A DNA stretch of 51,280 nucleotides, from the IMG/VR virus record IMGVR_UViG_3300029703_000007. One strand, 5' to 3'. Below are positions 24,025 through 32,402 of the stretch, piece by piece; within the stretch, counting starts at the first letter, position 1, and each line of letters opens with the position of its first letter. The position numbers and the translations under genes were made by a program. The notes under the pieces were generated by a model. That model had not been told where the DNA came from. It did not search any database and worked only from the letters and a program-made list of their open reading frames with translations. Source of the stretch: a virus.

Positions 24025-24189
24025 CTACCTCATTATGAAATAAACAATAAGTGAAGCGCCCCAAATCATAAGGAAAAACATTATTGTTATAGCCGTTTCA
24101 ATTCCGGCAAAGTTTCCATCATCGTTGACCGCTATATAAAATATTGAAACAATAGTGAATAAGCCTAATATGGCAAAGTAATAAATCAT
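24025..24189 (-). CDS. Small two-TM membrane protein (54 aa), below cutoff
   Basis: Hand translation MIYYFAILGLFTIVSIFYIAVNDDGNFAGIETAITIMFFLMIWGASLIVYFIMR. Confidence 0.45.
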   Translation of the reverse strand: MIYYFAILGLFTIVSIFYIAVNDDGNFAGIETAITIMFFLMIWGASLIVYFIMR

Positions 24190-24276
24190 TTCTTAACCTT
24201 TCCGCAATGTAAGCAAATATTGCAATGTCCTCTGAATGTAATCCACTCATGGAACCCCACCCAACAAAATAAGCGT

Positions 24277-24495
24277 CTAATCATCTAAATTATCCCCAGC
24301 TTTTTTTATTGACTTAACAACGCCTTTTACAAGGCTTGAAGTACCTAGTGTTGCGATAGATAATAAACCGTCTGTTTCATCTTTACGGTCGTCTGTAAGG
24401 CTTGACAAATCTTTTCCAAGCTCGCCAAGGCAGCGGATTGGGGTAGATACTAAAGTTGTAATTGATTTAAATATTCCCATCTTTCTCATCCTCAT
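24277..24495 (-). CDS. Hypothetical protein (72 aa)
   Basis: ORF track; several possible Met starts. Confidence 0.5.
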   Translation of the reverse strand: MRMRKMGIFKSITTLVSTPIRCLGELGKDLSSLTDDRKDETDGLLSIATLGTSSLVKGVVKSIKKAGDNLDD

Positions 24496-24847
24496 AAAAA
24501 GTTATTTCATCTTTGTGGACAGGGCGGCAATTTTGATAATAACTATCACCATCTCTTAAATACATATCATCTTCGTTATAGTCTACTAAAATTCCTAATA
24601 CTTTCCTTTCAATATTCCAAAACCAGCAGGGGATTCTATTTTCGATAATATATCCCCAATCTATAGGCTTTTGATAGACTTCCCAATCATTTATGAAAAA
24701 AGAAATATTGCGAAATACATATTCTGTACCACTTTCATCTAAAATTTTATTACCTTTCATATAAATAAAAGTATTTTTGCTCCACAGCGCACTTCTAATC
24801 TTTGCCCCTTTTCTGAACTCGGGCAACAGTTCTTCCAAATATGCCAT
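24467..24847 (-). CDS. DUF2829-like N-terminal module fused to a conserved C-terminal domain (126 aa); paralog of 26250..26633
   Basis: LPEFRKGAKIRSALW...NDWEVY then PIDWGYIIENRIPCWFW...NCRP...TFYE shared with the paralog. Confidence 0.6.
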   Translation of the reverse strand: MAYLEELLPEFRKGAKIRSALWSKNTFIYMKGNKILDESGTEYVFRNISFFINDWEVYQKPIDWGYIIENRIPCWFWNIERKVLGILVDYNEDDMYLRDGDSYYQNCRPVHKDEITFYEDEKDGNI

Positions 24848-25077
24848 TAGTAATCTCCTCCCTCGGCAAGAACATTATCCAACGTTGCAACAATGTTTTG
24901 ATTGGTGAACCCCTCATAGCTGTTCCAATCTGCTTTTGTATGTATAGATACTCCAGCGGAACATCCCCCGCAAAAAGGAACAAGTCCTAAATCGTTCACT
25001 TTCTGTATAGCTTTTTCAAGGCTCGTTAGCGCCTTTACCACCTCTTTAGTGTTATATTTATCATCATGTATCAACAT
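24847..25077 (-). CDS. Hypothetical protein (76 aa)
   Basis: ORF track. Confidence 0.5.
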   Translation of the reverse strand: MLIHDDKYNTKEVVKALTSLEKAIQKVNDLGLVPFCGGCSAGVSIHTKADWNSYEGFTNQNIVATLDNVLAEGGDY

Positions 25078-25202
25078 TCTTCAATCTCCGCACAAATGAA
25101 CTCTTTGCCAAAAAAATTGAAAGCTTTATTTTCTGACAAAATATAAAGCGAGAACACTAAACCGAGTGCTATTCCTATACCAATGTATTTAAACTTCATC
25201 AT
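25071..25202 (-). CDS. Small signal/TM peptide (43 aa), below cutoff
   Basis: Hand translation MMKFKYIGIGIALGLVFSLYILSENKAFNFFGKEFICAEIEEC; stop overlaps next ATG. Confidence 0.4.
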   Translation of the reverse strand: MMKFKYIGIGIALGLVFSLYILSENKAFNFFGKEFICAEIEEC

Positions 25203-25206
25203 TTAT

Positions 25207-25647
25207 CTAATTCCCTAACCCCTCAAAATTCCAAAAATCCATATTATCCCCACATTCATCTTTAATCGCCCAAGTCGGAAAATGACACCAAGTATTGTCT
25301 TTCAGCATAATGGCGATAAATTCATCATCGTTGCGAGGTCGCGCTAACACCCTTGACGAGGGACACCAGCCTATAATATCATCTCGGATAAATTCCTTGT
25401 TAGTATCGAAATCAAAGAAATTTTGGCAATAGCCAGCATTCCAATTTTCAAAGATAAATCGGTTGGCCGGAAGTTTGGGAATTGGTTTATTTATATTTGT
25501 TTTCTTTTCCGCAACTTCCACAACTTCTCCGTCTTTAAGCTCACACAATAAGCATGCTCCCCTTTGTAAGACTGGGCAAAATTTGTCGCAGCCGTTTTTA
25601 ATTCCATACTTGTAACATTCATTCATCGGACACTTCATTAAAAACAT
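25207..25647 (-). CDS. Cys-rich hypothetical protein (146 aa)
   Basis: ORF track; KCPMNEC...CDKFCP...CLLC. Confidence 0.55.
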   Translation of the reverse strand: MFLMKCPMNECYKYGIKNGCDKFCPVLQRGACLLCELKDGEVVEVAEKKTNINKPIPKLPANRFIFENWNAGYCQNFFDFDTNKEFIRDDIIGWCPSSRVLARPRNDDEFIAIMLKDNTWCHFPTWAIKDECGDNMDFWNFEGLGN

Positions 25648-25912
25648 TTCTTAAACCTTGGCACCGTTGGCCGTTACGCCAATAATCCCGATAGGGGTCT
25701 TTAATAAACTTGCCGTCTTTCTTGGCCGAAACCGAATAATCGGGCGTTTTTATATCCATGACCGCGCAATTTGTTTCGAGCTGATCGAGCAGCTTAACAA
25801 AATCCCTTTGCCATTCTTCCGGCATTGATTGAAGTATTGAACGCGGTAGCACCAAATATTTGGCATAACTCAAGCCAAAGAATATATGTATATAATCCTT
25901 GTAGTCAGTCAT
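25619..25912 (-). CDS. Hypothetical protein (97 aa)
   Basis: ORF track. Confidence 0.55.
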   Translation of the reverse strand: MTDYKDYIHIFFGLSYAKYLVLPRSILQSMPEEWQRDFVKLLDQLETNCAVMDIKTPDYSVSAKKDGKFIKDPYRDYWRNGQRCQGLRNVFNEVSDE

Positions 25913-26030
25913 TTCTTAACCTTTCTACAATGTTTAGAGATAAAATTATGCAAAGGAAAATTGCAATTATCAATGCAATCAAGCTCTTTATTTTCCCTTT
26001 GGCAATAATCACAACAATGCTCCCAGTCAT
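25905..26030 (-). CDS. Small TM protein (41 aa), below cutoff
   Basis: Hand translation MTGSIVVIIAKGKIKSLIALIIAIFLCIILSLNIVERLRND; stop overlaps next ATG. Confidence 0.4.
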   Translation of the reverse strand: MTGSIVVIIAKGKIKSLIALIIAIFLCIILSLNIVERLRND

Positions 26031-26056
26031 GGAACCCGAGCCAACAAAGCAAGCGC

Positions 26057-26275
26057 CTAATCATCTACAATCTCCCAATCATCAGCCATAATATCCACAT
26101 CAGATAAAGCCTTACTACAACATCCCGATTTTGTAATAAAACCACTCTCACACCAATCCGGCAGTCTTCCCCAAGTAAAAGCATAACTATCGAGCCATTT
26201 AGCTCTTTTTATATACTTATACTTTCTTACTCCCCAATGTAAAGCCTGTTCAAATCTCATCTTTTTTGCCCTCAT
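26057..26275 (-). CDS. DUF2829-like small protein (72 aa)
   Basis: MRFEQALHWG..YIKRAKW......DIMADDWEIVDD matches the F..A...G..v.R..W ... D..A.DWEIV pattern of DUF2829. Confidence 0.55.
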   Translation of the reverse strand: MRAKKMRFEQALHWGVRKYKYIKRAKWLDSYAFTWGRLPDWCESGFITKSGCCSKALSDVDIMADDWEIVDD

Positions 26276-26633
26276 AAAAAGTTAATTCATCTCTGCGGGC
26301 AGGGCGGCAATTTTTATATAAACTTCTATTCCCTGCGTCATCAAACATAATAAAATCGTATTCAACACCTTTTTCTATTTTTCCCAGAGTTCCGCATATA
26401 GCCCAATTTAAGTTATCATCCCAAAACCAGCAAAGGCACCTATTTTCGATGATATAGTTCCAGTCAATAGGCTCTTGATAAAATTCCCAGTCAGAAGCTT
26501 CCAATTCTTTATTTGTAAAAATAAGACCTTTTTTAAAATCAGATATTTCAACAAAATCATTATCTCCCCAGTATTTACGCCTAATTTTAGCACCGTTTCT
26601 GAACTCGGGCAGCAGTTCTTCTAAATATGACAT
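26250..26633 (-). CDS. DUF2829-like N-terminal module fused to a conserved C-terminal domain (127 aa; ORF-track start 26732)
   Basis: AAGGAG SD before ATG 26633; MSYLEELLPEFRNGAKIRRKYW...SDWEFY; paralog of 24467..24847. Confidence 0.6.
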   Translation of the reverse strand: MSYLEELLPEFRNGAKIRRKYWGDNDFVEISDFKKGLIFTNKELEASDWEFYQEPIDWNYIIENRCLCWFWDDNLNWAICGTLGKIEKGVEYDFIMFDDAGNRSLYKNCRPARRDELTFYEGKKDEI

Positions 26634-27088
26634 TCTTTTCTCCTTAAAGCCGAAACAATTAAACCCCAAGTAGGATTCTCCCTTTCTAAAAGCGGCGCAG
26701 GGCACACCAGAGTTACAAGCTCGTAGTAACATGAAAAATCTTTTTTATCCAAATCAATTTCCAAAGCACCAGCCCAAAGGGGGATTTCTTCTTTTTTCAA
26801 AAGACCTTTAGGAAAGGCATAATAAATTTCATTTGAAAACAATCTCGCGGCGACTTGTTTCCGACAGTTGTTCTTATCCCTTAAAAAATCAGACCGACTA
26901 ACCTTAATTTCGATTGTTACTGTCTTATTTCCTTTTTCAGGACTAATACAAAATAGGTCGGCTCTTTTTTCGCTTGTATTGCCATATCCAGAACCAAAAC
27001 GAAATTCAGGAACACAGATATAATGGTCGAAAGGATATGTTCTTGGTAAAATATCAAGAATTGCCGCTGTTTTTTCTTTATCGGTCAT
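26621..27088 (-). CDS. PD-(D/E)XK nuclease-fold protein (MmcB-like) (155 aa)
   Basis: ADLFCIS...VTIEIKVSRSDF = D...ExK core. Confidence 0.5.
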   Translation of the reverse strand: MTDKEKTAAILDILPRTYPFDHYICVPEFRFGSGYGNTSEKRADLFCISPEKGNKTVTIEIKVSRSDFLRDKNNCRKQVAARLFSNEIYYAFPKGLLKKEEIPLWAGALEIDLDKKDFSCYYELVTLVCPAPLLERENPTWGLIVSALRRKECHI

Positions 27089-27833: not shown

Positions 27834-28202
27834 TTACAAAGCTAGCACCGGGCGAACGTAAGGATAGTCGTTGCCCTTACCGCCCCAGTCCAAACCGGAA
27901 CTGTTGCCAAAGCTAGAGGTCCACGCGTAGCCGTAACTGCACTCCGACGAAGACCAGTACCAACTTTTTTTCAACGGCTCGCCGCCCGCTCTGACGAGGG
28001 CTTTGTTGACAGCATCCAAATTTTCGGCAATCGCCATCCACTCGTTTTTTGTCGGTATGCCAATTTTTACGGCGTCATACCAACTCATCTGTTGCGGCTT
28101 GTCCTGCAGCGCAATAATAATTACCCGTCCGTTGATAGCGGCGGCGCGAACGCCGACCGGCTGGCCGTTCTTTTTCACAATCATTACTCTGAATTTTGAC
28201 AT
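27834..28202 (-). CDS. DUF1566 (Lcl C-terminal-like) domain protein (122 aa)
   Basis: IPTKNEWMAI...SWYWSSSE...YAWTSSF...YVRPV matches the W.lPt..E...yWSS...aw...f...vR.v pattern. Confidence 0.65.
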   Translation of the reverse strand: MSKFRVMIVKKNGQPVGVRAAAINGRVIIIALQDKPQQMSWYDAVKIGIPTKNEWMAIAENLDAVNKALVRAGGEPLKKSWYWSSSECSYGYAWTSSFGNSSGLDWGGKGNDYPYVRPVLAL

Positions 28203-28216
28203 CGTTTATTTCCTCT

Positions 28217-28654
28217 TCAAAAATAAAACACCGGGCGAACGAATAGATTGGTGTAGTTGTACTTATAGTCGCTGTACAAACCGTATCTGTCGCCTAGGTA
28301 AGAGTTCCACGCGTAGCTGCCGGAGCTCTCCGACGAAGACCAGTAAGTGCCGTTCAACATCTTGCCGCCAGCGTTTCTCAGCATTTTGTTGATAGTGCTT
28401 AAGTTATCGCAAATAAATTTTAGTTCATGTTTCATCGGCAGGCGGCAATAGTGTTCTTCACACCAAACTTTTGCCTCGAACCAGTCCATTTTCTCTGGAG
28501 CATCTTCTAACGCAAGGTCAAAATAATGCTGGTTATCAATATAGCAGCGTATGGCGACAGCTTTGCCATCTTTTGTTACCATCTCAATTGTTCCGGCGGT
28601 TTTTGCCGGCTCAAAAGCCAAATTATCCTCATAATCCGGTGCATTATTAGTCAT
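28217..28654 (-). CDS. DUF1566 domain protein (145 aa), distinct N-terminus
   Basis: LPMKHELKFI...TYWSSSES...YAWNSYL...FVRPV. Confidence 0.65.
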   Translation of the reverse strand: MTNNAPDYEDNLAFEPAKTAGTIEMVTKDGKAVAIRCYIDNQHYFDLALEDAPEKMDWFEAKVWCEEHYCRLPMKHELKFICDNLSTINKMLRNAGGKMLNGTYWSSSESSGSYAWNSYLGDRYGLYSDYKYNYTNLFVRPVFYF

Positions 28655-32252: not shown

Positions 32253-32281
32253 TATATAACATAAATTATAAATGTTGTCAA
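32253..32281 (-). promoter_or_regulatory. Leftward consensus promoter copy 2 (TTGACA-17-TATATA)
   Basis: Minus-strand TTGACA = 32276-32281, TATATA = 32253-32258. Confidence 0.65.
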
Positions 32282-32402
32282 TACTTTATGTTAAAAATCT
32301 GTTGGCTAAAGGTGTTAAAAATGTTAAAAATGTTTTTAATAAAATGACTTCATTCTTCTGAAACCCTTGGTATACTTGGAATCTAGAGAGTTGTTAATAT
32401 TT

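Follow-up and report, generated by a model that had tools for sequence, protein, structure and literature searches.

The question raised by this locus is whether three modules resembling DUF2829 (PF11195), the domain family of the phage protein Tad2, are counter-defense proteins, and how the two copies of the repeated run of small genes that holds them came to differ. The locus lies in the IMG/VR virus record IMGVR_UViG_3300029703_000007, a stretch of 51,280 nucleotides (nt) that we call the window and that is a gut-metagenome phage genome of ~51 kb, with genes for a portal (DUF4055), a coat protein (P22-type), a nuclease (DUF2800), a helicase and a primase (RepB-type). No known family of phage immune-signal sponges is more versatile than Tad2, whose characterized members consist of a single domain and are about 90-105 amino acids long. 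The explanation that we favor overall, if tentatively, is that the locus is an accessory cassette with two slots, filled by recombining Tad2-like fusion proteins that would have a counter-defense role.

Every open reading frame (ORF) of the window was scanned with domain profiles built here. The scan returned exactly three DUF2829-like modules, the number proposed in an earlier note on this DNA, and two copies of a second domain, referred to as the C-domain, with none further of either. All genes of the locus are on the minus strand and tightly packed, with frequent overlaps. As transcribed, from right to left, they encode a protein of 155 amino acids (aa; 26621-27088), paralog B, a 72-aa protein and a 51-aa Cys-rich protein, then proteins of 97, 146, 43 and 76 aa, and finally paralog A, a second 72-aa protein, a 32-aa Cys-rich protein and a 54-aa membrane protein. 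As the earlier note had claimed, two segments share conserved blocks: five direct repeats join 24178-24848 to 25901-26634, with 73-85% DNA identity and a copy spacing of 1723-1804 nt. The elements on which the argument depends are the following.

24178-24848: repeat unit 1, with blocks D1, D2, D3, D4 and D9, split by a swapped cassette of 178 nt (24297-24474)
25901-26634: repeat unit 2, with the partner blocks, split by a swapped cassette of 178 nt (26077-26254)
24759-24848 and 26545-26634: repeat block, 73% identical
24614-24689 and 26418-26493: repeat block, 79% identical
24475-24544 and 26255-26324: repeat block, 83% identical
24243-24296 and 26023-26076: repeat block, 83% identical
24178-24210 and 25901-25933: repeat block, 85% identical
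26250..26633, minus strand: paralog B, 127 aa
26475-26633: N-domain of paralog B (residues 1-53), a mini-DUF2829
26253-26474: C-domain of paralog B (residues 54-127), 'CLCWFWD...CRPV..DE.TFYE'
24467..24847, minus strand: paralog A, 126 aa, with the two-domain layout of B and different hypervariable segments; matches phrog_6670 (E = 2e-6)
26057..26275, minus strand: stand-alone DUF2829 gene, 72 aa from the first ATG
24277..24495, minus strand: swapped-cassette gene of copy 1, 72 aa, function unassigned; 67 aa if the second ATG is used (24480, MGIFKS...)

The identity between paralogs A and B is 46% (E = 6e-35), close to the ~45% that had been judged by eye for these proteins of ~127 aa. The 160-aa ORF at 26250-26732 is too long for paralog B, and its start was placed at position 26633 because all homologs begin with MSYLEELLP. 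The gene downstream of each paralog has indeed been swapped, as the note had read it. The two 72-aa proteins (24277-24495 vs 26057-26275) give no alignment in BLASTP and are unrelated, and the swapped DNA (24297-24474 vs 26077-26254) has an ungapped identity of 29%, which is chance level. The shared blocks had been described as intergenic, and in this respect the description fails: they are coding, made up of overlapping gene ends and starts. The FYEDKKD 3' end of the two-domain family gene overlaps the start of the next gene, and GATGATTAG overlaps the ATG of the Cys-rich gene. A reading of the blocks as regulatory intergenic elements was rejected, since each block either is coding or falls on a junction of overlapping genes.

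Two further observations concern these segments. The swapped cassettes are equal in length and each codes for a 67-aa protein ending in Asp-Asp, despite being unrelated. At residues identical between A and B, the codons are identical at 14/14 positions in the 3' conserved block (24467-24544 / 26250-26324) and at 43/58 overall; the codon identity in the 3' block is consistent with recent gene conversion or with a dual-coding constraint from the overlapping downstream start.

Comparison with relatives, the part of the analysis with the firmest support, shows that the two copies represent two slots, whose allelic types are long-lived and exchange parts by recombination at conserved joints. Slot 1 denotes copy 2 of the window (B and the stand-alone DUF2829 gene) and slot 2 denotes copy 1 (A); homologous proteins carry P numbers and related contigs L numbers. 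Clustered at 90% identity, the homologs of the two-domain family fall into 937 groups of proteins, most of them of gut-metagenome origin. Each domain of A and B has relatives of 92-100% identity in other contigs. For A, the N-domain shares 93% identity with that of P0102, and the C-domain shares 92.5% with that of P0051 and 87% with that of P0045; the N-domain of P0045, in turn, is 100% identical to that of B. The N-domain of B is likewise 100% identical to those of proteins with other C-domain types. Among 120 family members (7140 pairs), the identities of N- and C-domains are uncorrelated (r = 0.03); in 328 pairs the N-domains are at least 90% identical and the C-domains at most 60%, and the converse holds in 60 pairs.

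The same reassortment is seen along contigs. Both slots are kept in L018 (52.8 kb), where slot 1 holds another C-domain type, and one slot alone is found in L008, L013 and L014. L012 (51.2 kb) corresponds to the window less one repeat-to-repeat segment, with flanks 98.5% and 100% identical, and a single chimeric family gene is present in L012 and in L019/L020. In three-way alignments one clean switch from B to A was observed in each case, at the NCRP block in L012 and at the CLCWFW block in L019, and these crossovers lie within repeat blocks D2 and D3. Free reassortment affects the N-domain types, the C-domain types and the cassettes downstream of them; single chimeric genes arise by crossover from one slot to the other, and the conserved coding frameworks double as homologous-recombination joints in the phage population. 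L013-L015 have slot 2 alone, followed by a DUF2829 gene truncated to 52-57 aa and an IS1595-family transposase just downstream of the cassette (5804-6499 in L013; also in L014 and L015). At 6001-6378 in L016/L017, a B-type gene with 89% protein identity lies in an unrelated phage backbone carrying DNA polymerase III alpha, an SNF2 helicase, and myovirus baseplate and sheath genes, which demonstrates that the gene was recently transferred horizontally.

Short conserved 'linker' sequences at module boundaries flank non-homologous cassettes in the mosaic genomes of lambdoid and other temperate phages. The joints of the window are alike in that conserved stretches at gene boundaries flank swapped cassettes, and they too are crossover sites. 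They differ in lying inside one gene family, between the domains and at the 3' end, so that recombination shuffles protein domains besides whole genes. Within the family, the conserved frameworks are residues 1-19, 48-71 and 106-121, and the hypervariable segments are residues 20-47 and 72-105; aromatic residues (Trp, Phe and Tyr) are frequent at the invariant positions (W22, W49, W58, W71, F119, Y120).

Judged from its sequence and predicted structure, the stand-alone protein of slot 1 appears to be a divergent Tad2-fold (DUF2829) protein, in agreement with the earlier note. Translation probably begins at the second ATG, at 26260, to give a 67-aa product (MRFEQAL...), and the gene then overlaps the end of paralog B. 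The 67-aa start is used by gene callers in L018, and the 'MRxxKM' prefix is an out-of-frame reading of the upstream FYEDKKD end that recurs before unrelated downstream genes at many loci. Residues 6-70 of the 72-aa protein cover positions 1-73 of PF11195 end to end (model length 73 positions, gathering cut-off 25 bits). Two homologs exceed that cut-off over their full length: P0125 (67% identity to the 72-aa protein) reaches 29.1 bits with residues 1-63 on positions 1-72, and P0127 reaches 31.6 bits. The AlphaFold2 model has the topology alpha1-beta1-beta2-beta3-beta4-alpha3-beta5, which is the Tad2 order of elements; in Tad2 the N-terminal helix is joined by an antiparallel sheet of five strands, and the beta2-beta3 and beta4-beta5 loops contain helices. 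Its 14 best matches in the PDB are all Tad2 (SPO1, Myroides), with template modeling (TM) scores of 0.6-0.67 and a best E-value of 0.0097; SptTad2 and HgmTad2/AcrIIA7 stand lower in the match list. A sequence search of the 72-aa protein against solved structures gave no match. The protein is rare, with 4 relatives (single sequence) or 8 (profile) recovered from 5.8 billion protein clusters.

One of the metagenomic relatives, P0121, is a chimera: its sequence follows the stand-alone DUF2829 protein as far as the 'DW' motif and then continues as the last 25 residues of the 76-aa protein encoded at 24847-25077. It represents another deletion variant of the locus, with the junction at the short shared 'DW' motif.

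The N-domains of the two paralogs (~53-58 aa) are shortened DUF2829 domains, related at the superfamily level. Their profile can be aligned with that of the stand-alone family over the whole length (hhalign probability 97%, E = 3.7e-11), and PF11195 is matched by 19/44 family members (best E = 6.8e-8), with 4/44 above the cut-off. Those four, P0057, P0066, P0067 and P0062, are 55-58% identical to B and score 27.6-33.4 bits. The significant matches of the N-domain are confined to model positions 1-31 to 1-44 of 73. When the N-domain and 72-aa profiles were compared with a Tad2 template, a thin one of two sequences, hhalign probabilities of 33-38% were obtained over the first 34-42 residues. In the AlphaFold2 model of paralog B (predicted local distance difference test score, pLDDT, 86), the N-domain consists of alpha1, beta1, two short helices and a final DWE strand, and Tad2 is among the top fold matches of the model in the PDB. 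Searched against solved structures, the full family profile found chance-level matches only (E about 0.6, to LH3 and to coat proteins of parvoviruses), and a match of P0066 to Mediator Med19 (E = 0.018) was dismissed as spurious. The best viral structure match of paralog B is A0A8S5P724 (133 aa, E = 1.5e-5, 128 aligned columns), a Herelleviridae sp. protein automatically named 'Thoeris anti-defense 2-like domain-containing protein'. It is itself uncharacterized and probably shares the two-domain layout; it differs from paralog B in sequence (20% identity), and a root-mean-square deviation (rmsd) of 13 A points to a differing domain orientation.

The pairing of a fusion protein with a stand-alone protein recurs elsewhere. 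L021 (2582-3207) and L022 encode a protein of 140 aa whose N-terminus is a mini-DUF2829 (E = 5.5e-8 with the N-domain profile) and whose C-terminal half is different, followed with a 4-nt overlap by a stand-alone Tad2-fold homolog. Just upstream in both contigs lie Mom and an orphan N6/N4 methyltransferase, which are anti-restriction-type genes. The recurrence of the pairing suggests a joint function of the fusion protein and the stand-alone protein.

The C-domain of the paralogs (~70 aa, motifs CLCWFWD and CRPV..DE.TFYE) is, as modeled, a separate and uncharacterized family of small beta-barrels with Sm/SH3-like topology. Its profile found 168 cluster representatives among 1.84 billion proteins, mostly proteins of 120-140 aa in which the domain is C-terminal. 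It also occurs alone in proteins of 60-80 aa (e.g., P0269, L011 3235-3474), behind several unrelated N-terminal regions, and in fusions that additionally bear a DUF1566/Lcl_C domain (P0134) or an HNH insertion (P0174). Comparison with the two-sequence Tad2 template showed that it is no second DUF2829 domain (hhalign probability 0.1%). The model consists of a short helix followed by five strands, and its best PDB matches are weak matches to Hfq (E = 0.07-0.4, target-normalized TM-score about 0.6), whose chains superpose on it with an rmsd of 2.0-2.2 A over 58-60 residues at 10-17% identity. The likeness to Hfq/Sm-like and Tudor/SH3-like barrels is one of predicted topology alone, and a profile search gave no sequence match to solved structures. 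Metal binding by the C-domain cysteines was considered as a candidate property; no more than two of them are invariant across distant members.

How far the three modules resemble Tad2 in function depends largely on the ligand pocket. The sponges of the Tad2 family are homotetramers whose ligand pockets lie between protomers, and by sequestering an immune signal they protect phages from Thoeris, CBASS or Pycsar. With Tad2 (SPO1 gp34.65, ModTad2, SptTad2 and HgmTad2, which is AcrIIA7) all three share the N-terminal helix, the 'G-K-x-I-R-R-x-x-W' hairpin and the C-terminal 'DWE-I/V' strand, and they are likewise small and encoded in an operon of small accessory genes. They differ in that the middle of the domain is far shorter (67-72 aa for the stand-alone protein and 53-58 aa in the fusions, as against 89-104 aa in Tad2), and in that two of the three are fused to an extra domain that characterized Tad2 proteins lack. 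The contacts of SPO1 Tad2 with the immune signal 1''-3' glycocyclic ADP-ribose (gcADPR) are W25, N26, W73, S76, T78 and D79, in a pocket formed by the beta1-beta2 loop, the beta3-beta4 loop, beta4 and alpha3 from two protomers of the tetramer (bioRxiv 10.1101/2023.05.01.538930), and the HgmTad2 mutants W21A/N22A and S90A/T92A/D93A target the equivalent motifs (PMC10680739). The contact motifs 'GWNG' and 'W-x-x-S-x-T-D', the latter just before 'DxLAEDW', were located on Tad2 sequences from the PDB, which were retrieved via a consensus sequence, and the SPO1 numbering was set on the motifs by homology. The states in the window are as follows.

W25 (SPO1): kept in the 67/72-aa protein, in B and in A
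N26 (SPO1): L in the 67/72-aa protein, G in B, S in A
W73 (SPO1): K in the 67/72-aa protein, L in B, Y in A
S76 (SPO1): kept in the 67/72-aa protein, T in B, R in A
T78 (SPO1): V in the 67/72-aa protein, K in B, I in A
D79 (SPO1): kept in the 67/72-aa protein, E in B, S in A

The Asn of 'GWNG' and the Trp of 'W-x-x-S-x-T-D' are thus lost in all three modules, and the Ser and Asp are kept by the stand-alone protein alone. On this sequence comparison the canonical gcADPR-binding signature is incomplete in all three, which makes the canonical binding mode unlikely. The result is one of several that weigh against a Tad2-like role. Contacts are kept at 1/6 positions in A and B (the first Trp) and at 3/6 in the stand-alone protein (W, S and D). 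Sponges for an invariant ligand usually retain their pocket residues, and here the pocket-equivalent region varies most. The N-domains, as seen in the model of paralog B, are truncated and lack the beta3-beta4 hairpin, which is part of the Tad2 pocket; the earlier note's assignment of the paralog N-termini to DUF2829 therefore stands for the relationship and falls short for a complete domain. The Pfam check that it had proposed gave a divided outcome, with relatives above the cut-off and the window proteins below it (16.9 bits for B, 16.6 bits with E = 0.011 for the stand-alone protein, no match for A). The PDB fold matches of the models of B and of the 67/72-aa protein are all weaker than E = 1e-3, the latter model has moderate confidence (pLDDT 68), and the databases name members of the family 'hypothetical protein' throughout, with five representatives nameless or hypothetical.

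The incomplete signature and the missing hairpin lower the standing of a 'gcADPR-binding Tad2'. They are compatible with a sponge of another kind, because tested Tad2 homologs use other ligands and pockets: they bind histidine-ADP-ribose (His-ADPR), N7-cyclic ADP-ribose (N7-cADPR), cyclic UMP and CMP (cUMP/cCMP) and cyclic dinucleotides, and their ligand range involves other pockets and a variable insertion between beta2 and beta5 (PMC12393519, PMC10680739). Among the functions considered, counter-defense is the likeliest, perhaps through sequestration of a signal. By analogy with these proteins, it is possible, if doubtful, that the three DUF2829-type modules are counter-defense proteins that sequester a small-molecule immune signal. 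Under such circumstances, they would act early in infection, as Tad2 does, and would oligomerize via the conserved alpha1/beta1 core. The signal sequestered would be something other than canonically bound gcADPR. The segment that would face the ligand is the hypervariable one from the conserved Trp to the DWE strand, which is where specificity is set in Tad2 homologs, and the C-domain could supply oligomerization or a second pocket. The continual reshuffling of the locus among related phages fits a counter-defense role, and the recurrent pair beside anti-restriction-type genes in L021/L022 and the B-type gene in an unrelated backbone are counted in its favor. A bolder proposal, which we regard as unlikely, is that the locus represents a new modular class of counter-defense proteins, in which a minimal Tad2 core and an undescribed beta-barrel carry hypervariable cassettes that are reassorted, together with a stand-alone partner, at joints inside the gene. 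In such a class, reassortment may yield combinations of specificities against signaling immunity, and fusion and stand-alone proteins may form hetero-oligomers.

The reassortment in all combinations of hypervariable segments bounded by very conserved frameworks is also what would be expected if the family members act not as small-molecule sponges but as inhibitors that bind proteins, or as factors of host takeover, with core and barrel as a scaffold and with hypervariable surfaces that bind or evade variable host proteins such as defense proteins. This account, which we consider somewhat unlikely, would explain the absence of the canonical ligand residues and beta3-beta4 pocket elements, and the joining of the C-domain to many unrelated N-domains is adaptor-like. 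The DUF2829 protein AcrIIA7 was moreover once reported as an anti-CRISPR, an activity that was not reproduced (PMC10680739). Against it, the DUF2829 proteins of demonstrated mechanism are all sponges, and the invariant residues rich in Trp, Phe and Tyr resemble nucleotide-stacking pockets. That the cassette is instead a 'moron' benefiting the host, through superinfection exclusion or defense against other phages, is very unlikely in our view. Prophage copies of the family gene adjoin an integrase at the end of the early operon, a typical moron position, and both the small membrane and Cys-rich miniproteins of the locus and the fast turnover of cassettes would suit such an element. A search of PADLOC-DB, however, gave 0 matches for 10 locus proteins at E ≤ 0.01, which makes this explanation less likely; the sole recognizable domain belongs to an anti-defense family, and the gene is also found in a backbone that has no integrase within the 6-kb flanks examined.

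A different kind of alternative concerns the origin of the two copies. The earlier note had proposed a tandem duplication followed by divergence, and the paralogy that it recognized is real. In its simple form, in which the copies duplicated in place and then diverged (subfunctionalized) with no exchange with other genomes, the account would fit the tandem arrangement of the units, their shared gene order and joints, and the layout shared with L018, by which the two-slot state is inherited. It is nonetheless too simple, and we give it scarcely any probability. A and B share less than half of their residues, each of their domains has nearly identical relatives in other contigs, some relatives have one slot alone, and the copies recombine. 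A recent in-place duplication that drifted apart was rejected from the discordant domain matches, the uncorrelated domain identities and the slot variants, and the simple account is largely refuted by the first two.

The two-slot cassette of recombining Tad2-like fusions thus remains the preferred explanation. The layout of the locus, the superfamily-level relationship of the modules to DUF2829, the modular independence of the C-domain and the recombination are shown, and the counter-defense role is inferred from them and from the Tad2 literature. Going by the sequences, what appears to be new is a small domain family and the occurrence of a Tad2-like core in an architecture that is both fused and recombining. 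One likely member of the two-domain family had been automatically labeled Tad2-like. The two-domain family was not found in the literature searched on DUF2829, Tad2 fusions and Tad2 paralogs. It forms a sizeable uncharacterized branch in which a stripped-down Tad2 core and a new domain are reshuffled domain by domain, often with a second Tad2-fold gene adjoining. If its members bind immune signals, the minimal requirements of the Tad2 pocket would be redefined and the branch would offer specificity variants in a library made by nature. Otherwise, the N-terminal element of DUF2829 would be a more general scaffold, and automatic 'Tad2-like' labels would need caution. In either case, the mapped crossovers provide a clean case of recombination joints inside a gene.

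The locus lies within a ~9-kb leftward operon of small genes that runs from 32262 down to 23346. At the head of this operon is the sequence that, within the region, best matches a sigma-70 promoter (32294..32265, minus strand; TTAACA, 18-nt spacer, TATAAT, 11/12); it points away from the packaging and structural genes. Given this promoter-like site, early expression of the operon is plausible. The bins of metagenome-assembled genomes that contain relatives are assigned to gut Alphaproteobacteria, Gastranaerophilales/Vampirovibrio and Succinivibrionaceae, with the limit that binning of phage contigs is unreliable. A search of the locus proteins against NCBIfam gave nothing, and the matches in PHROGs are to families of unknown function only. 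In an annotated phage collection, the sole relative is in the metagenomic 'Dulem virus 29', where it is annotated as hypothetical. The remaining genes of the cassette and the spacer are listed below.

26621-27088, minus strand: 155-aa gene, overlapping the start of paralog B by 13 nt
25909..26064, minus strand: Cys-rich miniprotein of copy 2, 51 aa, MIRRLLCWLGFHDW...HCRKVKK, with a central insertion relative to its copy-1 paralog
24847..25912, minus strand: non-repeated spacer between the copies, four genes
25619-25912, minus strand: spacer gene, 97 aa, phrog_3527
25207-25647, minus strand: spacer gene, 146 aa, Cys-rich N-terminus CPMNECYKYGIKNGCDKFCPVLQRGACLLC, without a family match; kept in L018 and partly in L013
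25071-25202, minus strand: spacer gene, 43-aa membrane protein
24847-25077, minus strand: spacer gene, 76 aa, preceding paralog A
24186..24284, minus strand: Cys-rich miniprotein of copy 1, 32 aa, MIRRLFCWVGFHEW...CLHCGKVKK, with a weak phrog_15926 match
24025..24189, minus strand: membrane miniprotein, 54 aa, beginning at the conserved 3' joint of copy 1 (repeat D9)

Several of these genes recur at the corresponding positions in relatives. The 155-aa gene marks slot 1 in L008, L012, L018 and L019, and the spacer genes likewise precede the slot-2 gene in L013, L014 and L018. The copy-1 72-aa gene also lies 3' of the chimeric genes in L012, L018 and L019, and the 54-aa membrane miniprotein is kept in the same three contigs. 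The two Cys-rich miniproteins are paralogs (39% identity, E = 2e-8) encoded in DNA repeats D4 and D9, and similar miniproteins are found downstream of the family gene in L006, L007, L009 and L012.

Two minor observations concern the upstream part of the operon. The 155-aa protein, which has no match in Pfam or NCBIfam, contains by eye an 'EIKVSRSDF' motif resembling that of PD-(D/E)xK nucleases. About 1.2 kb upstream of the repeat units in the same operon, two adjacent genes (27834-28202 and 28217-28654, both on the minus strand) encode paralogous DUF1566/Lcl_C-like proteins, the second of which matches Lcl_C with E = 1.3e-4. In the metagenomic protein P0134, a mini-DUF2829, a C-domain and a DUF1566-like tail are joined in one chain, and this fusion hints that the DUF1566-like neighbors are functionally linked to the two-domain family.

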